Origin: a virus
Virus genome (UHGV): UHGV-0096129
Length of the DNA stretch: 31,048 nt
Strand: one strand, 5' to 3'
The notes beneath the pieces were generated by a model. The model saw only the letters and a list, made by a program, of their open reading frames with translations. It was not told where the DNA came from and searched no databases. Shown here piece after piece: positions 1,356-25,886 of this stretch (within the stretch, counting starts at the first letter, position 1; the number at the start of each line of letters is the position of its first letter). The translations under genes were made by a program, and so were the position numbers.

Positions 1356-1627
1356 GTATTCGTATTGAAATTGGCGAACGTTATGTCGTTACCAGTGACA
1401 GCTTTCAGTTTATTCTCCACGAGAAAAAGAGAGCGGAAAGCGGTAAAAACGCCGGTCAGGAATGGCTGGCGGTGGTTGGTTATTATCCGAAATTAAGCCA
1501 GCTCGTTTCCGGCCTGATGCATCACGATATTCTGACCGGAAGCGCAAAGTCTTTTGCTGATTTAAACGCGCAGGTTGAGCAACTCAGCAGGCGTTGTTCA
1601 GAGGCTTTTGGCTCATATGGCCGTTAA
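1352..1627 (+). CDS. Small early protein, P2 orf83-position hypothetical
   Basis: 91-aa ORF coupled to the upstream gene (overlap 1352-1355). Its 3' end overlaps the gpA start at 1617. Confidence 0.6.
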   Translation: MSIRIEIGERYVVTSDSFQFILHEKKRAESGKNAGQEWLAVVGYYPKLSQLVSGLMHHDILTGSAKSFADLNAQVEQLSRRCSEAFGSYGR

Positions 1628-3902
1628 AGCCTCCGGGCGTTTTGTCCCTCCGTCAGCATTTGCTGCAGGCACCGGTAAGGCGTTTACCGGTGCTTATGCA
1701 TGGAACGCGCCACGCGAGGCCGTCGGGCGCGAAAGACCCCTTACACGTGACGAGATGCGTCAGGTGCAAGGTGTTTTATCCACGATTAACCGCCTGCCTT
1801 ACTTTTTGCGCTCGCTGTTTACTTCACGCTATGACTACATCCGGCGCAATAAAAGCCCGGTGCACGGGTTTTATTTCCTCACATCCACTTTTCAGCGTCG
1901 TTTATGGCCGCGCATTGAGCGTGTGAATCAGCGCCATGAAATGAACACCGACGCATCGTTACTGTTTCTGGCAGAGCGTGACCACTATGCGCGCCTGCCG
2001 GGAATGAATGACAAGGAGCTGAAAAAGTTTGCCGCCCGTATCTCATCGCAGCTTTTCATGATGTATGAGGAACTCAGCGATGCCTGGGTGGATGCGCATG
2101 GCGAAAAAGAATCACTGTTTACGGATGAGGCTCAGGCTCACCTGTATGGTCATGTTGCTGGCGCTGCACGTGCTTTCAATATTTCCCCGCTCTACTGGAA
2201 AAAATACCGTAAAGGACAGATAACCACGAGGCAGGCATATTCTGCCATTGCCCGCCTGTTTAACGATGAGTGGTGGACTCATCAGCTTAAAGGCCAGCGT
2301 ATGCGCTGGCATGAGGCGTTACTGATTGCTGTCGGGGAGGTCAATAAAGACCGTTCTCCTTATGCCAGTAAACATGCCATTCGTGATGTGCGTGCGCGCC
2401 GCCAGGCAAATCTGGAATTTCTTAAATCGTGTGACCTTGAAAACAGGGAAACCGGCGAGCGCATCGACCTTATCAGTAAGGTGATGGGCAGTATTTCTAA
2501 TCCTGAAATTCGCCGGATGGAGCTGATGAACACCATTGCCGGTATTGAACGTTACGCCGCCGCAGAGGGTGATGTGGGGATGTTTATCACGCTGACCGCG
2601 CCGTCAAAGTATCACCCGACACGTCAGGTCGGAAAAGGCGAAAGTAAAACCGTTCAGCTTAATCACGGCTGGAACGATGAGGCATTTAATCCAAAGGATG
2701 CGCAGCGTTATCTCTGCCGTATCTGGAGCCTGATGCGTACGGCATTCAAGGATAATGATTTACAGGTCTACGGTTTGCGTGTCGTCGAGCCACACCACGA
2801 CGGAACGCCGCACTGGCATATGATGCTTTTTTGTAATCCACGCCAGCGTAACCAGATTATCGAAATCATGCGTCGCTATGCGCTCAAAGAGGATGGCGAC
2901 GAAAGAGGAGCCGCGCGAAACCGTTTTCAGGCAAAGCACCTTAACCGGGGCGGTGCTGCGGGATATATCGCGAAATACATTTCAAAAAATATCGACGGCT
3001 ATGCACTGGATGGTCAGCTCGATAACGATACCGGTAAGCCGCTTAAAGATACTGCCGCGGCTGTTACCGCATGGGCGTCAACGTGGCGCATCCCGCAATT
3101 TAAAACGGTTGGACTGCCGACAATGGGGGCTTACCGTGAACTACGCAAATTGCCTCGCGGCGTCAGTATTGCTGATGAGTTTGACGAACGCGTCGAGGCT
3201 GCTCGCGCTGCCGCAGACAGTGGTGATTTTGCGTTGTATATCAGCGCGCAGGGTGGGGCAAATGTCCCGCGCGATTGTCAGACTGTCAGGGTTGCCCGTA
3301 GCCCGTCGGATGACGTTAACGAGTACGAGGAAGAAGTCGAGAGAGTGGTCGGCATTTACGCGCCGCATCTCGGCGCGCGTCATATTCATATCACCAGAAC
3401 GACGGACTGGCGCATTGTGCCGAAAGTTCCGCTCGTTGAGCCTTTGACTTTAAAAAGCGGCATCGCCGCGCCTCGGAGTCCTGTCAATAACTGTGGAAAG
3501 CTCACCGGTGGTGATACTTCGTTACCGGCTCCCACACCTTCTGAGCACGCCGCAGCAGTGCTTAATCTGGTTGATGACGGTGTTATTGAATGGAATGAAC
3601 CGGAGGTCGTGAGGGCGCTCAGGGGAGCATTAAAACACGGCCTGAAAACACCAAATCGTCAACAAAGAAACGGAAGCCCGTTAAAAACACATGAAATTGC
3701 ACCGTCGGCCAGACTGACCCGGTCGGAACGAATGCAAATCACCCGTATCCGCGTTGACCTTGCTCAGAACGGTATCAGGCCTCAGCGATGGGAGCTTGAG
3801 GCGCTGGCGCGTGGAGCGACCGTAAATTATGACGGGAAAAAATTCACGTATCCGGTCGCTGATGAGTGGCCGGGATTCTCAACAGTAATGGAGTGGACAT
3901 AA
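1617..3902 (+). CDS. A: Replication initiation endonuclease gpA (rolling-circle HUH nickase)
   Basis: From the ATG at 1617 the product is 761 aa, the recalled P2 A length. It has the HUH-type metal motif PHWHMMLF and the catalytic tyrosine motif GYIAKYISKN. In P2 the replication origin lies inside the 3' part of this gene; I cannot pin down the nick site here. Confidence 0.95.
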   Translation: MAVKASGRFVPPSAFAAGTGKAFTGAYAWNAPREAVGRERPLTRDEMRQVQGVLSTINRLPYFLRSLFTSRYDYIRRNKSPVHGFYFLTSTFQRRLWPRIERVNQRHEMNTDASLLFLAERDHYARLPGMNDKELKKFAARISSQLFMMYEELSDAWVDAHGEKESLFTDEAQAHLYGHVAGAARAFNISPLYWKKYRKGQITTRQAYSAIARLFNDEWWTHQLKGQRMRWHEALLIAVGEVNKDRSPYASKHAIRDVRARRQANLEFLKSCDLENRETGERIDLISKVMGSISNPEIRRMELMNTIAGIERYAAAEGDVGMFITLTAPSKYHPTRQVGKGESKTVQLNHGWNDEAFNPKDAQRYLCRIWSLMRTAFKDNDLQVYGLRVVEPHHDGTPHWHMMLFCNPRQRNQIIEIMRRYALKEDGDERGAARNRFQAKHLNRGGAAGYIAKYISKNIDGYALDGQLDNDTGKPLKDTAAAVTAWASTWRIPQFKTVGLPTMGAYRELRKLPRGVSIADEFDERVEAARAAADSGDFALYISAQGGANVPRDCQTVRVARSPSDDVNEYEEEVERVVGIYAPHLGARHIHITRTTDWRIVPKVPLVEPLTLKSGIAAPRSPVNNCGKLTGGDTSLPAPTPSEHAAAVLNLVDDGVIEWNEPEVVRALRGALKHGLKTPNRQQRNGSPLKTHEIAPSARLTRSERMQITRIRVDLAQNGIRPQRWELEALARGATVNYDGKKFTYPVADEWPGFSTVMEWT

Positions 3903-4354
3903 TGGCAAAAATTCACGAGGTAAAGCTGCACGCAAAATATTTTGACCTTGTGCTGGAAGGAAAGAAACGCGCAGAGTTTCGGAAAAATGACCGTAATTAT
4001 GAGCGCGGGGACACGTTGATTTTGCATGAATGGGTGCAGGGTGTGTATACGGGGCGAAAGGTTGAAGCCCAGATAACAGATGTTACTGACCTGTCAGACT
4101 GGCTGGAAGATTATGTCTTGCTAAGTATTGAGCGGCTTAATACAGGCGCATGTGAGATTGTGAACTGGAAAGAACTTAGTGAGCGTGGTCTGGTATTCAG
4201 AATTAATCATGAAATTATGCATCAGCTCGGCCTTGCTGTTATGTATGAACCAGAGACGGGGATGTCTGGCGGGGCAATGGTTGCCACGGATGGAGCATGG
4301 AACTATTCAGATGAACAGATTGAGCGTGCACAGCAAAACGGGTGGCTTGGATAA
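3902..4354 (+). CDS. ASCH/DUF3850-like domain protein with a C-terminal extension
   Basis: The start ATG at 3902 overlaps the gpA stop (TAATG). The N-terminus KIHEVKLHAKYFDLVLEGKKRAEFRKNDRNYERGDTLILHEW looks like the DUF3850/ASCH beta-barrel signature seen in phage early regions. The C-terminal ~75 aa are unassigned. Confidence 0.65.
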   Translation: MAKIHEVKLHAKYFDLVLEGKKRAEFRKNDRNYERGDTLILHEWVQGVYTGRKVEAQITDVTDLSDWLEDYVLLSIERLNTGACEIVNWKELSERGLVFRINHEIMHQLGLAVMYEPETGMSGGAMVATDGAWNYSDEQIERAQQNGWLG

Positions 4355-4560
4355 TGCACAGAATACCAGGTGAGATACCGCACCATAAAACTAAAAATAT
4401 CAAGCTGATGGCTATTGTTCAGCGTTTGCAGCAGATTATGGTCAACGAAAATCTGACGCCCGATGAGCTGGTCGGGTGTGCCGAAATAGTCCGGGATAAT
4501 TACGGGCGGTTTAACCATATCGGTCAATCCAGAGTTATGCCACCACCACGCAGACGATAG
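4342..4560 (+). CDS. Possible small hypothetical protein (start uncertain; ATG at 4408 is an alternative)
   Basis: 72-aa ORF with backbone-like composition. No convincing Shine-Dalgarno at either start. It is the last ORF before the composition changes. Confidence 0.3.
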   Translation: MAWIMHRIPGEIPHHKTKNIKLMAIVQRLQQIMVNENLTPDELVGCAEIVRDNYGRFNHIGQSRVMPPPRRR

Positions 4561-4789
4561 AGAACGCCGCCAGTCGTGAAACTTGTTTTCAGGGCTGGCG
4601 GGGTTGAACAACGAGCGAAGCGAGGCGTTAGTTGACAGTAATATTTTTACTGCGTTGGTGCTGTTTTTTGACGGTTGAAAGGAGTTAGCTCGGAGAGCTA
4701 AAGCTAACAACTTACAAATATTCAAAAGTAAGCTTCCTGTTGCTAACATAAGGTCGATTTTTTATGTGGATGATGCAAAAAGGATAGCT

Positions 4790-5521
4790 ATGGATACTGT
4801 AATCGCTTTTCTATCACTCGCTTTTTTCGTTGCTTTTTTCATCGGATTAATCAAACCATCACTGGTGCGGATGCCAAACCGTAAAAGTGCAAGTGCGGTT
4901 TATCTCGGAGGAGGTTTTGTATTGAGCATAATTGGTTCAATACTCTATCCAACAGAAAAAAGCCAGCCAGTTGCTAAAACTGAAACATCAACCGTTGCAG
5001 AACACCAAGTCCAAAAAAAATTCGAATATGGTGGAAAAACACTCAAGGAATATCGGAACGAGCCAAAGAAAACTCGACACGATATTGTGAATAGTTACAT
5101 TGATTTTAAGGAAGTGCCAGTCACCGCATCAGATGCATTTTATGCCTGCATGAGTGAATATACTTTTACCAAAGATGATGAGTTGAAACTCGGTGATGTT
5201 CTTGGATGGTGCTTTAATGATTATGAAAAAGATCCGAAATCACTAAACAATAAAATCAACCTTGATACATTTCAGAGTAATTTTAGCGGTTGGGATGGTT
5301 CTTATCGACCATTGGAAAAGCTAATTAAAGAGAATATGAACGATGATTCATCTTATAAACATGTGTCAACAGTGTATCATTTGGTTTTGAATAAAGATCC
5401 GCACGCCATTGTGAAAACAACATTTCGCGGAACTAATGCTTATGGCGGAGTGGTGAAACAGACCGTTGCGGCGCGCGTCAATGTTCGAACTGGTGAGGTA
5501 ACTTCAATAATTGATAACTAA
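4790..5521 (+). CDS. Two-TM membrane protein with a ~190-aa predicted periplasmic C-terminal domain; function unknown
   Basis: ORF 4766-5521. I prefer the ATG at 4790 (AGGA at 4781-4784, 5-nt spacer), giving 243 aa. There are two hydrophobic helices (VIAFLSLAFFVAFFIGLI and AVYLGGGFVLSIIGSILY). They are separated by a basic loop (KPSLVRMPNRKSAS), which under the positive-inside rule places the C-terminal domain outside the cytoplasm. Confidence 0.7.
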   Translation: MDTVIAFLSLAFFVAFFIGLIKPSLVRMPNRKSASAVYLGGGFVLSIIGSILYPTEKSQPVAKTETSTVAEHQVQKKFEYGGKTLKEYRNEPKKTRHDIVNSYIDFKEVPVTASDAFYACMSEYTFTKDDELKLGDVLGWCFNDYEKDPKSLNNKINLDTFQSNFSGWDGSYRPLEKLIKENMNDDSSYKHVSTVYHLVLNKDPHAIVKTTFRGTNAYGGVVKQTVAARVNVRTGEVTSIIDN

Positions 5522-5545
5522 AGTGAAGGGCTAGGCCATGTTATG

Positions 5546-5574
5546 TTTAAGCCATAATATGGCTTTTTTATGAT
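5546..5574 (+). promoter_or_regulatory. Candidate sigma70 promoter for the 198-aa gene
   Basis: TTTAAG (5546-5551), a 17-nt spacer, then TATGAT (5569-5574), about 30 nt upstream of the ATG at 5604. AT-rich context makes chance matches likely. Confidence 0.25.
5550..5569 (+). terminator. Weak rho-independent terminator candidate after the membrane-protein gene
   Basis: AGCCATAATATGGCT (5-7 bp stem) is followed directly by a T6 run ending at 5569, 29 nt after the stop codon. The stem is short and AT-rich. Confidence 0.35.
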
Positions 5575-5603
5575 TTGGGTAAATTGATAAGGAGTCGATT
5601 TAA

Positions 5604-6200
5604 ATGAATTCAAAAAAAAGGAATAAATACCTCAAGTTAATGTTTGAGTGTAGAAAAAGAATTGAAACGCTACATGATTTAGCATCCGGACATACAGGAG
5701 GACTTTATCTTCAAGTTTTAATAGAAATAGAAGCGTTACAACTCAGAAAGTTATTGGAGCTTATCGCATTTTCATCGTTAATTTCATATGAGGAATCCTA
5801 TAAGACTGTTGCGAAGAGTATTGATGGTGTATGGAAAGCCAAGCGTATTATAAGTGAGTTAGAAAAAATAAATCCAAATTTTTACCCGTTACCTGTATCA
5901 TCATTTACCAATGACGGGTGGAAGAAATTGAAAGGTGGATATTTAACAAAAAAACAATTTATTGCACTGTATGATGAATGTTCAACTCATATTCATGTTA
6001 GAAACCCATACAGGATAAGCGAAAACTCGCTGGCTTTTCATAGAAAAGTACCTTCATACTTAGAGAGAATTGAATGTTTATTATCTAAACATATTGTTTC
6101 ACTTGTAGATGATAGGGAGTTTCTTTTTGTAGAGGTACCTCATTTTGAAGATTCGGCTACCCCTCTAAGAATTAGATGTTTAATTAAAAATAGAGGGTAA
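5604..6200 (+). CDS. Hypothetical cytoplasmic protein, 198 aa, no recognised domain
   Basis: Strong RBS (AAGGAG at 5589-5594, 9-nt spacer). AT-rich codon usage like its neighbours. Predicted mostly helical, with no TM segment or signal peptide. Confidence 0.75.
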   Translation: MNSKKRNKYLKLMFECRKRIETLHDLASGHTGGLYLQVLIEIEALQLRKLLELIAFSSLISYEESYKTVAKSIDGVWKAKRIISELEKINPNFYPLPVSSFTNDGWKKLKGGYLTKKQFIALYDECSTHIHVRNPYRISENSLAFHRKVPSYLERIECLLSKHIVSLVDDREFLFVEVPHFEDSATPLRIRCLIKNRG

Positions 6201-6446
6201 ATTTTTATTATCCCTTAATGATAACTTACATTAGTTATGATAAAAGTTTGATAACGTCAGTAGTGCTGGAGCTGTCCTTCAGCACTGATGGAGTTGAACA
6301 ATGAGCACTTCTGGACGTTATATTAATACTGATATAGTTAGTGGTTTTATTCTAAATTATTAGCGTAGCGCCGAAACTCACTATTTACAATGGTGGGGTA
6401 ACGCTGAAAGAACCGGAGCGTAGATATCTTTTTTTACTGAAAAATT

Positions 6447-6468
6447 GTGGTCAATATTGCTTGACCAC
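6447..6468 (-). terminator. Candidate terminator hairpin downstream of the FRG gene
   Basis: Perfect 8-bp stem GTGGTCAA / TTGACCAC with a 6-nt loop. On the minus strand it is followed by AATTTT, 4 nt, then an A-run. It lies about 150 nt beyond the minus-strand stop at 6617. The U-tract is short. Confidence 0.3.
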
Positions 6469-6616
6469 TATACAGCGTCAGTTCAAACTACAATTAATAA
6501 AGTTAAGGTTCATAGCCTTTTTGAAGGGTACGTATCCAAGAGGCCTGTGCTCACTATGTGGTAAAGAGTCAAAATATCGTTATGTCTGATTCTTACGCAC
6601 AATTGTAATATTTCTT

Positions 6617-7972
6617 TTAAATGTCAGACATATATTTCTTTGCGATTTCAGAAGCTGTCTTTTCTATACTTGGATAAACAGTGCTCTCAGTAATGTTCAA
6701 TTGTGCAAGTTCTTTCAAGATTATTTTTTTATTAACTATGTCAACTCTGTCAAGAGGAAAGTCTTCTGTTGTCTCTGGGAGTACTGCCTCGTGACCAAAT
6801 AATAGAAATGCGCCAGACTGTGATTGAATGCGTTCATTATTTATTCTGGCGCGGATGAATAGTATTTTCCGAAGATCATGCAGGTCTATATTTTTTTTAA
6901 AATATGGTTTTTCAGCTTGAATATGATCTAAAAGTTTATTGAGTAGTTCTTTTGCGTGAGATTTGTCGTTTTCAATTAAGCTTTTTGATATAGTGCTTAA
7001 GATATTGTGTGGCATAAATGCCAGATTGGCTATACAGCTAACAGTATCAGAGTCAAAATATTTGATATTTTTTCTTTCTGTAGGAAACGAGATGACTTGT
7101 CCGGTGTCTTCAGGATCTTCACAGCATGCAAAATATAAAGCAATTAGCGGGTTGGATGTAATATCTAGCAATCTTGTAGGTAAACCATAATGCTGCATTC
7201 TAACTAATTTATCGATCGTAAAATTATCAGATATAAATTCATTAGGCCTTGCTGACAGAATTTCACGAACCATAGATGATTCTGAATCAAGGTGCTTATG
7301 AGTCCCGTTATCATGTTTCCGGAAAAGAGATGGGATAAGTTCATATTTATTTCGTGAATGTCCTCTATAAAAAATTTCAGAGTTTGAATTGTTGGATTTT
7401 TCTATAAAACTGATATATTCCTTTAAGCTCTTTATTTTTCTTATTTTTGATGTTCTTTTGATGTTTCCAATTTTGGAGGTGTTAGAGAGAATTTTTTCAG
7501 TTGTATCGTTTTTGGTTTTATTTAGCTCAAGTTTTAGCAGTGTTTCTCTTAATTTTTTATCTTTAACTGCCCAGTGGGTTCTGCTAAGACCATAAGCACC
7601 TAAGTCTAATATTTCTTTATATTGTTTTATTTCGGGGTTCTTGATTTCGCCAAAATCATGAACGATTTCAAAGTGATAACAAACATCATCATTGTCTATG
7701 TGTAAGTTGCCGACTTTTCCAAGTCTTACTCTTAAATATCTATTTTTGTCACCGTCTTTATCGTATATTTCAGTCATGAAAAGAACAGGTAGCTTAGATA
7801 GAGCGTCTAAAGTTATAGGGCTTACTGGTGTTAATTTTTTATAAAGTAAGGATGGTGTACCTTCTAGCATTCGGGAAAGAGAGAAACTATCTTCCCCATT
7901 TTTAATATTAGGATCCATAGATGGCCATCTATCAAACACAGAGGGCTCACCCCCGATAATGAGATTAAACAT
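6617..7972 (-). CDS. FRG-domain protein with an uncharacterised ~185-aa N-terminal domain
   Basis: 451 aa, with GGAG 7 nt upstream of the ATG. FRG-family signatures are present: FYRGHSRNKYELIPSLFR (res 201-218), MQHYGLPTRLLDITSNPLIALYFAC (res 259-283) and NERIQSQSGAFLLF (res 379-392). A Lys/Arg-rich linker (res ~165-185) precedes the domain. Confidence 0.85.
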   Translation of the reverse strand: MFNLIIGGEPSVFDRWPSMDPNIKNGEDSFSLSRMLEGTPSLLYKKLTPVSPITLDALSKLPVLFMTEIYDKDGDKNRYLRVRLGKVGNLHIDNDDVCYHFEIVHDFGEIKNPEIKQYKEILDLGAYGLSRTHWAVKDKKLRETLLKLELNKTKNDTTEKILSNTSKIGNIKRTSKIRKIKSLKEYISFIEKSNNSNSEIFYRGHSRNKYELIPSLFRKHDNGTHKHLDSESSMVREILSARPNEFISDNFTIDKLVRMQHYGLPTRLLDITSNPLIALYFACCEDPEDTGQVISFPTERKNIKYFDSDTVSCIANLAFMPHNILSTISKSLIENDKSHAKELLNKLLDHIQAEKPYFKKNIDLHDLRKILFIRARINNERIQSQSGAFLLFGHEAVLPETTEDFPLDRVDIVNKKIILKELAQLNITESTVYPSIEKTASEIAKKYMSDI

Positions 7973-8230
7973 TCTAACTCCTTTTTACTTAAGAAATGAC
8001 ATTGATTGTCTTAATGTTGTCGTAAGGGCGATGTAGATTGCCAGATCTGATTCAGCACTACCAGAGAAAACTGTCAGTCTATGTTTGACTCTGTGGGAAG
8101 GTAGTTTTGCGTACATTATTGCATCAAATTGCATTTGCTATTATTTGGCCTTTCATACAAATGAGCTCAAAACTGACGTGCTTTCGCCTGGCTTATACAT
8201 TTGCATCAAAACCGACCCATGAAGCGGGCG

Positions 8231-8249
8231 GGCGAGGCGGGGAAAGCAC
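8231..8249. other. cos: cos cohesive-end sequence (P2-type, 19 nt)
   Basis: GGCGAGGCGGGGAAAGCAC matches the P2 cohesive-end sequence I recall. It is correctly placed just beyond the portal gene Q. Confidence 0.85.
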
Positions 8250-8391
8250 TGCGCGCTGGCGGTGGTGCTGATTTTATTTTTTCAGCGTCTGAGCGCGTCG
8301 TGATGGCGTTTAAATTGTGCGCTGGGGCGTTGCTGTGTCTGCGGGCTGTTTTGTGCGGTGGTGAGCGTGTGAGGGCGTGATGACGGGATGT

Positions 8392-8413
8392 AAAAAAGCC
8401 GCCCGCAGGCGGC
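8392..8413 (-). terminator. Rho-independent terminator of the P-Q operon
   Basis: On the minus strand: GCCGCC-TGCG-GGCGGC (6-bp GC stem, 4-nt loop) followed by TTTTTT, starting 6 nt after the Q stop codon. Confidence 0.7.
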
Positions 8414-8418
8414 GATGT

Positions 8419-9453
8419 TCAGCCGTTGTCAGTGTCCAGTGAGTAGTTTTTAAAGCGGATGACCTCCTGACCGAGCCAGCCGTTTATTTCCCGAATCCTG
8501 TCCTGTAACGGGATAAGCTCATTGCGGACAAAGACCTTTGCCACTTTCTCAATATCGCCCAGCGACCCGACATTCTCCGGCTTACCGCCCATCAACTGAA
8601 AGGGGATGCGGTGTGCGTCCAGCAGGTCAGCGGCGCTGGCTTTTTTGATATTAAAAAAATCGTCCTTCGTTGCCACTTCACTGAGCGGGATAATTTTAAT
8701 ACCGTCGGCTTTTCCCTGTGGGGCGTAGAGAAACAGGTTTTTAAAGTTGTTGCGGCCTTTCGACTTCACCATGTTTTCGCGAAGCATTTCGATATCGTTG
8801 CGATCCTGCACGGCATCGGTGACGTACATGATGTATCCGGCATGTGCGCCATTTTCGTAATACTTGCGGCGGAACAGCGTGGCCGACTCATTCAGCCAGG
8901 CAGAGTTAAGGGCGCTGAGATATTCCGGCAGGCCGTACAGCTCCTGATTAATATCCGGCTCCAGCAGGTGAAATACGGAGCCGGGCGCGAAAGGTGTCGG
9001 CTCGTTGAAGGACGGCACCCACCAGTAAACATCCTCCTCCACGCCACGGCGGGTATATTTTGCCGGTGAGGTTTCCAGTCTGATGACCTTACCGGTGGTG
9101 CTGTAACGCTTTTCCAGAAACGCATTACCGAACACCAGAAAATCCAGCACAAAGCGGCTGAAATCCTGCTGGGAAAGCCACGGGTGCGGGATAAACGTTG
9201 AAGCCAGAATATTACGTTTGACGTAAATCGGTGAGCTGTGATGCACGGCAGCACGCAGACTTTTTGCCAGACCGGTAAAGCTGACCGGCGGCTCATACCA
9301 TCTGCCGTTACTGATGCATTCGACGTAATCCAGAATGTCACGGCGGTCGAGTACCGGCACCGGCTCGCCAAAGGTGAATGCCTCCATTTTCGGGGCGCTG
9401 GCGGTCATTGTTTTTGCCGCAGGTTGCGGTGTTTTCCCTTTTTTCTTGCTCAT
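8419..9453 (-). CDS. Q: Portal protein gpQ
   Basis: 344 aa, the recalled P2 Q length. It is divergent from O and lies next to cos, as in P2, and is coupled to P (shared base 9453). Confidence 0.95.
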   Translation of the reverse strand: MSKKKGKTPQPAAKTMTASAPKMEAFTFGEPVPVLDRRDILDYVECISNGRWYEPPVSFTGLAKSLRAAVHHSSPIYVKRNILASTFIPHPWLSQQDFSRFVLDFLVFGNAFLEKRYSTTGKVIRLETSPAKYTRRGVEEDVYWWVPSFNEPTPFAPGSVFHLLEPDINQELYGLPEYLSALNSAWLNESATLFRRKYYENGAHAGYIMYVTDAVQDRNDIEMLRENMVKSKGRNNFKNLFLYAPQGKADGIKIIPLSEVATKDDFFNIKKASAADLLDAHRIPFQLMGGKPENVGSLGDIEKVAKVFVRNELIPLQDRIREINGWLGQEVIRFKNYSLDTDNG

Positions 9454-22836: not shown

Positions 22837-23364
22837 ATGCAGCATTTAAAAAATATTACTGCGGGTAATCCAAAAACTGTTGCCCAATATCAACTGACAA
22901 AAAATTTTGATGTTATCTGGTTATGGTCCGAAGAGGGAAAAAACTGGTATGAGGAAGTAAGTAATTTTCAGGAAGACACGATAAAGATTGTTTACGATGA
23001 GAATAATATAATTGTCGGCATCACCAGAGATGCTTCAACGCTCAACCCTGAAGGTTTTAGCGTTGTCGAGGTTCCTGATATTACCGCCAACCGACGTGCT
23101 GATGACTCAGGTAAATGGATGTTTAAGGATGGTGCCGTGATTAAGCGGATTTATACGGCAGACGAACAGCAACAACAGGCAGAATCACAAAAGGCCGCGT
23201 TACTTTCCGAAGCGGAAAGCGTTATTCAGCCACTGGAGCGCGCTGTCAGGCTGAACATGGCAACAGATGAGGAGCGTAGCCGACTGGAAGCATGGGAACG
23301 CTACAGTGTTCTGGTCAGCCGTGTGGATCCTGCAAATCCTGAATGGCCGGAAATGCCGCAATAA
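22837..23364 (+). CDS. G: Tail fibre assembly chaperone gpG (Tfa family)
   Basis: 175 aa directly after H. The C-terminal motif ([30 protein letters not shown]) is typical of Tfa/gpG chaperones. Confidence 0.85.
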
Positions 23365-23515
23365 GTTGTATGAGCTGACATATCTATAGCACAGAGTAAA
23401 GCCTAATCTGACAGTCCGCTCTGTGCAAGGAGCGGACATTACCTAACACATTGGTAACCTTCACAGATTTACGCGTTCTACATAGTTAGCATTGTATCTG
23501 ATGAGTTATCATGTT

Positions 23516-24295
23516 TTAAAATATCCAACTGATAAATCCACCTGAATACTTTTCACTAATTTTGATTGCATAAAGATCATGAAGAGTTATAAATAAATCA
23601 TTATCTTCTTTGAAAATTAACTCCTCATATTCTGCCATTATCAAATTATGCTGTGTTGTTAGTTTAGATATGTTATCTATTTCACTGGCAAGCATGGATT
23701 TGTTTACATTGGTGTGTGGATCCATGGCAATATATTTCCGCATCAATGGAATTAGTTGATCAGGGTCTATATTTTTTGCATTTTCCTTTGCTTTTTTTTG
23801 TCTTTCTGAATAGATGGAGTTAATTGTGTCAGTGTGTTTTTTCGCCAGTCTCTTAAACTCTGGATATGAACCAGTAACTAATGCAAGCTCTTCGTACTTA
23901 AGGAATAAATCGATATTGCATTTTTTTACCGTCATTTCAAGATCTTCAACTCTTTTTTTTAACTCTTCATTTGTTTTAATAAGAGACATCGGGAGAACTT
24001 CATAATGTTGTCCTAATTCTGAATCAGGGCTCATTGCCATATGTACTATTTCATTATACATGAGCTGATAAGAAGCAGATAACTCTCCATACTTTAGAAA
24101 TAGTTCATTATGTGAAGATGAACAAGAACTTTGTAATTTCATCATTGGCCTAAAGTAATCCTTTATAAACTCCTCCTGAAGATCTTGGTCTTTTTTGTAG
24201 CTCTCTAGGATTCCAGCAAAAAGAAATGACCCTAAAGATATAGAGATTATGGATATTAGCAATTGACTAAGGAATGATTGTGTTTCATTACTCAT
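23516..24295 (-). CDS. Membrane-anchored helical protein, 259 aa, unknown function (cargo at the P2 Z/fun position)
   Basis: AGGA 8 nt upstream of the ATG. One N-terminal TM helix (FLSQLLISIISISLGSFLFAGIL), then a Lys/Glu-rich helical region. Very AT-rich (about 25% G+C in line 23581-23640 by hand count). It is antisense to the flanking late operons. Confidence 0.75.
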   Translation of the reverse strand: MSNETQSFLSQLLISIISISLGSFLFAGILESYKKDQDLQEEFIKDYFRPMMKLQSSCSSSHNELFLKYGELSASYQLMYNEIVHMAMSPDSELGQHYEVLPMSLIKTNEELKKRVEDLEMTVKKCNIDLFLKYEELALVTGSYPEFKRLAKKHTDTINSIYSERQKKAKENAKNIDPDQLIPLMRKYIAMDPHTNVNKSMLASEIDNISKLTTQHNLIMAEYEELIFKEDNDLFITLHDLYAIKISEKYSGGFISWIF

Positions 24296-24554
24296 AAAAC
24301 ATCCTTAAAAAATAACACGAAAAGTGACTCCTGACAGGGAAGAAACGACAGGTCGGAAACAAACTTAACTGATGAGTTAGCCGTAGTCCAGAACCTTGTT
24401 TGAACACTTAGTGTGACTGTTTGCATCTCAGGAATTTGTGCCAATAATATTTGAATCCTTATAATTTATTTAAATCAAATTTAGTTACTCGCTCAAAGCA
24501 GGCTGTCAGATTTGATAGCGTTTGGGCTATGTAAACTGTCAGTCGGAAAATGAG

Positions 24555-24572
24555 TGTGTACAAATCAGGACA
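24555..24572 (+). promoter_or_regulatory. Candidate Ogr-type activator site (TGT-N12-ACA) of late promoter PF
   Basis: TGTGTACAAATCAGGACA fits the TGT-N12-ACA dyad described for P2/P4 late promoters. Its centre is about 55 nt upstream of a point just past a weak -10-like TTTCAT (24608-24613), and the FI ATG is at 24696. A single dyad can occur by chance. Confidence 0.4.
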
Positions 24573-24695
24573 GGCGAGCTGATTGCCCGCCTTTTCTTTA
24601 TCTGTTGTTTCATCCACTGACCAGCCAGGTCAAATAGCGTCTCATGCACTGCCCAACAGAAAATAGTTGCACCCATTAACCACGGAGTTAAACGG

Positions 24696-25886
24696 ATGAG
24701 TGACTATCATCATGGCGTGCAGGTGCTGGAGATTAACGACGGCACCCGCGTCATTTCCACTGTATCCACGGCCATTGTCGGCATGGTCTGCACGGCCAGC
24801 GATGCGGATGCGGAAACCTTCCCCCTCAATAAACCGGTGCTGATTACCAATGTGCAGAGCGCAATTGCAAAGGCCGGTAAAAAAGGCACGCTGGCGGCAT
24901 CGTTGCAGGCCATCGCCGACCAGTCAAAACCGGTCACCGTTGTCGTGCGTGTGGAAGACGGCACCGGCGACGACGAGGAAACGAAACTCGCGCAGACCGT
25001 TTCCAATATCATCGGCACCACTGACGAAAACGGTCAGTACACCGGACTGAAAGCCCTGCTGGCGGCGGAGTCGGTAACCGGTGTTAAGCCGCGCATTCTC
25101 GGTGTGCCGGGACTGGACACCAAAGAGGTTGCCGTCGCACTGGCATCAGTCTGTCAGAAGCTGCGCGCTTTCGGGTATATCAGCGCATGGGGCTGTAAAA
25201 CCATTTCTGAGGTGAAAGCCTACCGCCAGAATTTCAGCCAGCGTGAACTGATGGTTATCTGGCCGGATTTCCTCGCATGGGATACGGTCACCAGTACCAC
25301 CGCCACCGCGTATGCCACCGCCCGTGCGCTGGGTCTGCGTGCAAAAATCGACCAGGAGCAGGGCTGGCATAAAACGCTGTCCAACGTCGGGGTAAACGGT
25401 GTTACCGGCATCAGTGCCTCTGTATTCTGGGATTTGCAGGAGTCCGGCACCGATGCTGACCTGTTGAACGAGTCAGGTGTCACAACGCTGATTCGCCGTG
25501 ACGGTTTCCGCTTCTGGGGTAACCGTACCTGCTCTGATGACCCGCTGTTCCTCTTTGAAAACTACACCCGCACCGCGCAGGTGCTGGCCGACACGATGGC
25601 TGAGGCGCACATGTGGGCGGTGGACAAGCCCATCACTGCAACGCTGATTCGCGACATCGTTGACGGCATCAATGCCAAATTCCGTGAGCTGAAAACAAAC
25701 GGCTATATCGTGGATGCGACCTGCTGGTTCAGCGAAGAATCCAACGATGCGGAAACCCTCAAGGCCGGAAAACTGTATATCGACTACGACTATACACCGG
25801 TGCCTCCTCTTGAAAACCTGACCCTGCGCCAGCGTATTACCGATAAATACCTGGCAAATCTGGTCACTTCGGTTAACAGCAATTAA
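24696..25886 (+). CDS. FI: Contractile tail sheath protein FI
   Basis: 396 aa, P2 FI length and position. Confidence 0.95.
   Translation: MSDYHHGVQVLEINDGTRVISTVSTAIVGMVCTASDADAETFPLNKPVLITNVQSAIAKAGKKGTLAASLQAIADQSKPVTVVVRVEDGTGDDEETKLAQTVSNIIGTTDENGQYTGLKALLAAESVTGVKPRILGVPGLDTKEVAVALASVCQKLRAFGYISAWGCKTISEVKAYRQNFSQRELMVIWPDFLAWDTVTSTTATAYATARALGLRAKIDQEQGWHKTLSNVGVNGVTGISASVFWDLQESGTDADLLNESGVTTLIRRDGFRFWGNRTCSDDPLFLFENYTRTAQVLADTMAEAHMWAVDKPITATLIRDIVDGINAKFRELKTNGYIVDATCWFSEESNDAETLKAGKLYIDYDYTPVPPLENLTLRQRITDKYLANLVTSVNSN

Follow-up and report, generated by a model that had tools for sequence, protein, structure and literature searches.

Next to cos, between genes A and Q, P2-like phages harbour a hotspot (gpA–gpQ) for which Rousset et al. 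2022 (PMC9122126) report 1,650 arrangements, many loci holding more than one system and several of these being validated, alongside cargo unrelated to defence (partition systems and toxins, for instance). Table S5A of that work lists the arrangements 'FRG + hypothetical x3 + DUF3850/ASCH' and 'hypothetical + FRG + RVT_1', and no FRG locus is among the systems that its authors cloned and tested. In the DNA analyzed here (virus genome UHGV-0096129, 31,048 nucleotides, referred to as the window), the same position is occupied by an AT-rich island of three genes, g1, g2, and g3, the last of which encodes an FRG-domain protein. The island is unrelated to the Old, Tin, DUF4238, and DprA-PRTase cargo of this hotspot, and it is already catalogued.

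Two of the three genes carry prior flags, and the remaining one belongs to a large undescribed family. The closest described relative of g1 is orf97 of coliphage 186, for which the GenBank record of 186 carries the note 'expression from plasmid blocks 186 infection'. In this record, orf97 comes second in the LexA-controlled p95 SOS operon, where it follows the antirepressor gene tum and lies between the terminators t95a and t95b; a passage of PMC5322425 credits this operon (tum-orf97) to Brumby et al. 1996. For g3, the closest described group is PDC-S15 of PADLOC, an unvalidated candidate. The Aravind laboratory has assigned Frg, alongside RES, to the ADP-ribosyltransferase superfamily and has predicted it to be an antiviral effector and possibly an NADase. 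Our literature search on FRG in defence found this prediction and the PADLOC listings, and no experiment.

We read the interval, with moderate confidence, as a mosaic in which three accessory cassettes, each a single gene that moves independently, are stacked, each probably acting alone against other phages, and not as one three-gene system. Location, foreign composition, family memberships, separability, and predicted folds are what the analysis shows; the biochemical activities and phenotypes proposed for the locus are all inferred. The interval and its genes are as follows.

4634 to 8201, no strand: variable AT-rich cargo interval in the A–cos hotspot (G+C drop and homology breaks)
4790 to 5521, plus strand: g1, Orf97-family inner-membrane protein of 243 amino acids with two N-terminal transmembrane helices and a periplasmic C-terminal domain, both predicted (homology and hydropathy)
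5604 to 6200, plus strand: g2, stand-alone cytoplasmic protein of 198 amino acids with a predicted HEPN-like helical core and small C-terminal beta sheet (model and family alignment)
6617 to 7972, minus strand: g3, FRG-domain protein of 451 amino acids, PADLOC candidate PDC-S15 (Pfam and PADLOC profiles)

When the three proteins were scanned against PADLOC, Pfam, NCBIfam, and PHROGs, the only matches were FRG/PDC-S15 for g3 and unnamed PHROGs for the others. An initial annotation made from the letters of the window had seen no recognisable known defence system here, a statement that the PDC-S15 match of g3, the homology of g1 to 186 orf97, and the presence of the arrangement in Table S5A overturn. 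It had also reported no sign of Old, retrons, Gabija, DarTG, TIR, Sir2, restriction–modification, or toxin–antitoxin systems, and indeed no such model was matched in PADLOC, Pfam, or NCBIfam. The comparison with defence databases that it had proposed gave a divided answer: g3 matches the unvalidated candidate PDC-S15, and neither g1 nor g2 has a PADLOC match at E ≤ 1. PADLOC 2.0 presumably includes the Rousset three-hypothetical-protein system.

Setting and separability of the three genes

The G+C content of the island (4634–8201) is 0.349 compared with 0.533 in the rest of the window, and the only other 500-bp segments with a G+C content of 0.40 or less lie at 23300–24700, the Z/fun position. 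Homology to P2, Wphi, and thousands of Escherichia coli P2-like prophages ends at about 4633 and restarts at 8202. On the left lies P2 gpA (1575–3902; Pfam Phage_GPA, E = 8e-124) followed by a gene of the P2 orf91 type, and on the right lie cos, the portal gene Q (8419–9453, minus strand), and the terminase, which confirms the hotspot position in a P2-like prophage. The foreign, low-G+C island between gene A and cos, where P2 carries tin and old, had been recognized in the initial annotation, as had three open reading frames, all of which were found where it had placed them: 4766/4790–5521 (plus strand), 5604–6200 (plus strand), and 6617–7972 (minus strand). Its outer limits of 4561 and 8230 were close, and the homology breaks narrow the truly variable interval to 4634–8201. 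Chance open reading frames are ruled out by the conserved families behind g1, g2, and g3.

The content of the hotspot varies among otherwise similar P2-like genomes: among 5,426 complete E. coli genomes the flanks were matched in 2,155 and the whole island in 7. These seven copies are at least 99% identical and therefore represent one recent assembly event.

Outside these copies, each gene occurs in other phages without the others, for which reason we favor a mosaic over a single system. g1 is present in 84 E. coli genomes, 77 of which lack this g2 (at megablast sensitivity); it occurs without g2 in phages 186, 9W, and P24A7b, and in 9W, S164, P24A7b, and P22H4 it is followed by an unrelated gene of 232 amino acids. 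For g2, Yersinia phage vB_YpM_50 has a 70%-identical copy with no further gene between DUF3850 and portal, and Enterobacter prophages have a 64%-identical copy, either by itself or accompanied by other genes. Its distant homologs form small insertions in the chromosomes of Pseudomonas, Marinobacter, Sulfuricurvum, and Acidobacteria, one of them adjoining a Type ISP restriction enzyme. Full-length homologs of g3 are found by themselves in Tritos, a lambdoid phage (59%), beside a convergent reverse-transcriptase gene in P22H1 (47%), beside IS2 in PhiR11_1 (40%), and as single-gene insertions in Sphingomonas, Aeromonas, and Klebsiella; full-length homologs with unrelated neighbours were found in eight contexts. 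The same picture emerges from blastn comparison, in which the limits of the matching blocks are gene-sized: 4740–5522 (phage 186; g1 only), 5603–6175 (the Yersinia phage; g2 only), and 6636–7939 (Tritos; g3 only).

The sole larger shared block, 4740–6305, carries g1 and g2 without g3 at 78.5% nucleotide identity in BTP5-type, 186-like prophages of Salmonella, and for its g2 homolog the index of the assembly collection lists 806 blocks. With the common strand of g1 and g2 and their spacing of 82 nucleotides, this continuous block favors the strongest of the alternatives, in which g1 and g2 work together as a two-gene system (say, a sensor or effector in the membrane and its partner in the cytoplasm), with g3 as a module of its own. 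We nevertheless consider two modules unlikely. Phage 186 has orf97 without g2, and its exclusion note concerns orf97 expressed alone; most E. coli carriers of g1 lack this g2, as counted above; and vB_YpM_50 and Enterobacter prophages have g2 by itself at the hotspot, while elsewhere it lies at non-phage sites. The two genes are also separated by a terminator-like element, and g2 has its own strong Shine–Dalgarno sequence (AAGGAG).

5533 to 5573, plus strand: terminator-like hairpin and U-run between g1 and g2 (13-bp stem, then TTTTTTAT)

The hairpin is of modest stability (−16 kcal/mol, z = −1.8) and is partially conserved in the Salmonella block, and as evidence it is weak. The initial annotation had suggested that the island might be two modules, one of g1 and g2 and one of g3; this came nearer than a single system, and synteny divides the island further into three separable units.

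Still less probable, in our estimate, is a role other than anti-phage activity, such as one in the prophage cycle or lysogenic conversion, with, for example, Orf97 active in SOS induction and FRG serving counter-defence or NAD metabolism. The place of 186 orf97 in a LexA-controlled induction operon together with the antirepressor tum is consistent with such a role, as are the non-defence cargo described at the hotspot by Rousset et al. and the solo homologs of g2 and g3 that lie among housekeeping genes. Against it stand the exclusion phenotype reported for orf97 in the depositors' note and the standing of FRG proteins as PADLOC defence candidates and predicted antiviral effectors; moreover, g1, g2, and g3 are sporadic, AT-rich, and swapped as cassettes, a poor fit to conserved phage-cycle genes. 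That membrane protein, small helical protein, and FRG enzyme jointly make up one three-gene defence system of a new kind is very improbable: the seven E. coli genomes with this g2 and g3 do always have all three AT-rich genes side by side, but those copies amount to one event, at greater divergence each gene turns up in the absence of the other two, g1 and g2 face a convergent g3 across a 416-bp gap, and PADLOC files FRG proteins as a single-gene candidate.

That the hotspot by cos supplies anti-phage genes is established, and the island offers three compact, individually clonable candidates. It leaves the general picture of prophage-borne defence unchanged, and its value lies in target selection rather than in conceptual surprise.

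The Orf97-family protein g1 and the g2 family

The open reading frame of g1 could start at 4766 or at the ATG at 4790, and we consider the latter the better start because the PHROG profile and the RefSeq annotation both begin there and AAGGA lies upstream. By tblastn against phage genomes, g1 is 78.6% identical in amino acid sequence to 186 orf97 over all 243 residues (E = 2e-119), with further relatives in phages of Erwinia, Yersinia, Salmonella, and Klebsiella, and one of 44% identity in Vibrio phage VHML; it also matches phrog_3403 (E = 2e-144). In agreement with the initial annotation of a protein with two transmembrane segments and a periplasmic domain, hydrophobic segments span residues 4–21 and approximately 38–53. 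The loop between them contains three Lys/Arg residues (four with the adjacent K22) and no acidic residues, and on the positive-inside rule this loop, rich in Lys and Arg, predicts that the C-terminal domain of 190 residues is periplasmic. Such a placement fits the two invariant cysteines of this domain, C120 and C141, and the domain is probably disulfide-bonded. No match to g1 was found in Pfam, PADLOC (E ≤ 1), NCBIfam, or PDB sequences; a lenient Pfam scan of 41 homologs returned only noise, and a profile search of PDB sequences returned nothing below E = 1.

Like 186 orf97, g1 lies in the last plus-strand gene block before cos and belongs to a family with homologs in many 186/P2-like phages. 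It differs from orf97 in its surroundings: no tum/DinI gene lies upstream, no LexA box (CTG-N10-CAG) occurs in 4200–8450, and two further cargo genes follow. Given that both the tum/DinI gene and the box are missing, this copy is uncoupled from SOS control; it may be transcribed by read-through from the early operon or from a promoter of its own. The block on 186 infection is known from the GenBank note alone and would extend to g1 by homology. By this analogy, g1 would most likely exclude superinfecting phages of the P2/186 type at the envelope, by blocking either DNA entry or the receptor, and the gene ties the island to an old, never-explained exclusion phenotype.

The initial annotation had called g2 an orphan of 198 amino acids, which the searches do not bear out. 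A word-indexed search identified 80 relatives, all of about 200 residues, and an exhaustive profile search against clusters built at 50% identity identified 2,620 at E ≤ 1e-3, of which 577 reach E ≤ 1e-30; almost all are stand-alone. This large protein family is described in no database: g2 and ten sampled relatives have no Pfam or PADLOC model, the g2 family has no NCBIfam model, and the longer relatives with extra regions contain no Pfam domain from which the function of a partner could be read. Profile searches of PDB sequences with two alignments returned nothing below E = 1.

The structure model of g2 (predicted local distance difference test (pLDDT) score of 89.7) consists of five helices followed by a small sheet. 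R19, R48, E52, H131, and H163 are invariant in both alignments, one of which comprises 62 divergent sequences, and Y9 and N134 are invariant in the broader alignment. Such a polar cluster, conserved on a predicted HEPN-like scaffold, points to an enzyme or to a site where a ligand binds. We do not file g2 as a HEPN family member; the HEPN Rx4-6H motif is absent, there being no Arg four to six residues before a conserved His. Compared with HEPN toxins such as that of the MNT-HEPN pair SO_3166 (7ae2), g2 lacks this motif and an adjacent MNT or antitoxin gene, and has in addition the C-terminal beta sheet. To judge mainly from the location of its gene, g2 may be a solo effector of abortive infection. 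It might act as an RNA-directed or nucleotide-directed effector through its HEPN-like core and the R/E/H/N/H cluster, which is the least certain of the three assignments.

The FRG protein g3

The convergent FRG-domain protein named in the initial annotation is borne out by Pfam FRG (PF08867), which matches residues 199–288 with 81.5 bits against a cut-off of 25 (E = 9e-23). In PADLOC, 14 PDC-S15 models match g3, the best being PDLC04936 (E = 5.7e-98; residues 169–448, profile positions 13–297 of 300), and g3 also matches phrog_4962 (E = 6e-92). The S in PDC-S15 presumably denotes a single gene; homologs of g3 do occur as solo genes. More than 3,900 homologs were scored, and the full architecture of about 450 residues is kept in all of the best 120 (at least 42% identity), which span Enterobacterales to Alphaproteobacteria, with Aeromonas, Sphingomonas, Brucella, and Sinorhizobium among them. 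Of the two parts of g3 listed here, only the FRG module is covered by the best PDC-S15 profiles, and the N-terminal 150 or so residues lie outside them.

6629 to 7468, minus strand: g3 FRG module, residues 169–448, assigned to the ADP-ribosyltransferase superfamily by the Aravind laboratory (published prediction)
7523 to 7972, minus strand: g3 N-terminal domain, residues 1–150, candidate PUA-like (EVE/YTH/ASCH-type) nucleic-acid reader (predicted)

The FRG part contains the motifs FYR203-G-H205, R258-M-Q-H-Y-G-L-P-T-R-L-L-D270-x-T-S-N-P, and N379-x-R-x-x-S384-Q385-S-G. In an AlphaFold2 model built from 62 sequences (mean pLDDT 85.8), the invariant R203, T272-S273, and Q385 are located at strand ends and are candidates for the catalytic triad of the superfamily (R/H, S-T-S or Y, and E on strands 1, 2, and 5), with Gln rather than Glu at the apparent third position. 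Two features set g3 apart from ADP-ribosyltransferase toxins (RES toxins, DarT, Rhs TreX, and pertussis-like toxins): the apparent Gln (Q385) in place of Glu and the lack of a neighbouring antitoxin or immunity partner. In the N-terminal domain, which carries the motif R131-T-H-W-A-V-K137, the invariant or near-invariant residues W16, F30, F65, F101, H133, and W134 are candidates for an aromatic pocket that would hold a modified base, as judged from the alignment only.

The candidate PUA-like domain at the N terminus would bind foreign or modified nucleic acid, and the FRG module would then consume NAD+ or ADP-ribosylate a target so that the infection is aborted. This sense-then-consume mechanism is a hypothesis that draws on a moderate structural signal and the published prediction. 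It would differ from that of type IV enzymes with readers of the PUA superfamily (EVE-HNH VcaM4I, YTH-like McrB-N, and PD-T4-3) in having an effector of the FRG/ADP-ribosyltransferase type and not a nuclease; scans of g3 and its neighbours with Pfam, PADLOC, and NCBIfam detected no nuclease domain. A census of EVE domains (PMC7641849) describes fusions to nucleases, McrB, GNAT, and PIN and never mentions ADP-ribosyl or NAD partners.

Several checks lend these assignments no support. Unlike the readers of type IV enzymes, the N-terminal domain of g3 is assigned as a reader without sequence support: none of 22 g3-type N-terminal domains matches EVE, YTH, ASCH, or PUA in Pfam at E ≤ 10, a PDB profile search with the domain has no match below E = 1, and hhalign gives a probability of 0.2% for a relation to the ASCH protein encoded in the window, that is, none. 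The independent fold checks on the whole protein likewise add nothing in favor of the proposed mechanism, with no Foldseek match of the model to the PDB at E ≤ 0.001, nothing below E = 1 in the PDB-sequence profile search, and only noise in a lenient Pfam scan of 62 full-length homologs. As for g2, unrelated helical bundles reach the same Z as its HEPN likeness.

In its boldest form, our proposal would make g3 the first protein to combine restriction-type sensing (a PUA-like reader of nucleic acid that is foreign or modified, T-even DNA with its hydroxymethylated or glucosylated bases being an example) with an NAD-dependent FRG effector, and g2 the first recognised member of a very large (about 2,600 clusters) stand-alone defence family without a database model; we hold this double claim to be unlikely. 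As a possible nucleic-acid-sensing, NAD-dependent abortive-infection protein, g3 is the most testable lead in the island, and it would give the first function and mechanism for the widespread FRG domain (PDC-S15) and perhaps a novel union of a nucleic-acid reader and an effector that uses NAD.

In Peduovirus P22H1 (320–2743), the convergent neighbour of the FRG gene is annotated 'polymerase', and the arrangement matches 'hypothetical + FRG + RVT_1' of Table S5A; FRG therefore appears to share the hotspot with a probable retron in this phage.

Borders of the island and neighbouring genes

The remaining features of the locus are listed below.

3866 to 4560, plus strand: left backbone flank, a DUF3850/ASCH+DUF7415 gene of the P2 orf91 type and an open reading frame of 72 amino acids (Pfam DUF3850, E = 1e-17; ASCH, E = 8e-11)
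6201 to 6616, no strand: non-coding gap between the convergent g2 and g3 (416 bp; no open reading frame with homologs)
8231 to 8249, plus strand: P2 cos cohesive-end sequence, right anchor of the hotspot (exact 19-mer match to GGCGAGGCGGGGAAAGCAC)

The 19-mer at the right anchor, GGCGAGGCGGGGAAAGCAC, is what we take to be the P2 cohesive end. On the left, the DUF3850/ASCH gene occupies 3866–4354 and the open reading frame of 72 amino acids 4342–4560; the flank is conserved in P2, Wphi, and many P2-like phages and lies outside the variable cargo. The protein encoded at 3866–4354 matches a solved ASCH-type structure (3iuw, E = 2.5e-13), so that a protein of the PUA superfamily adjoins an island whose g3 may carry a PUA-like domain, with no sequence relation between the two. 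Between 4354 and 4631, the DNA is homologous (75%) to that downstream of g2 in Salmonella prophages, and 4563–4631 is 87% identical to that downstream of orf97 in 186. Since the same pieces occur there in different order, this stretch may, to judge from the alignments, be a recombination joint that serves cassette exchange.

The first 105 bp or so of the gap between g2 and g3 are part of the block with g1 and g2 that is common to Salmonella. An Rfam scan of the island gave only a sub-threshold chance match, with no Rfam family in 6201–6616, and a weak hairpin lies within the gap at 6447–6468.

A second AT-rich cargo gene (23516–24295, minus strand, 259 amino acids, G+C of about 0.34) was found within the low-G+C patch at 23300–24700, at the Z/fun position of P2 between the genes for tail-fibre assembly and the tail sheath; it has no Pfam or PADLOC match. 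At this position E. coli STEC2017-197, which carries a near-identical island, has a different gene, annotated as a restriction endonuclease. The chromosome record of this strain (NZ_CP075663.1) is rotated and begins at prophage gene A, as if gpA had been taken for a replicon initiator when the start point was set automatically.

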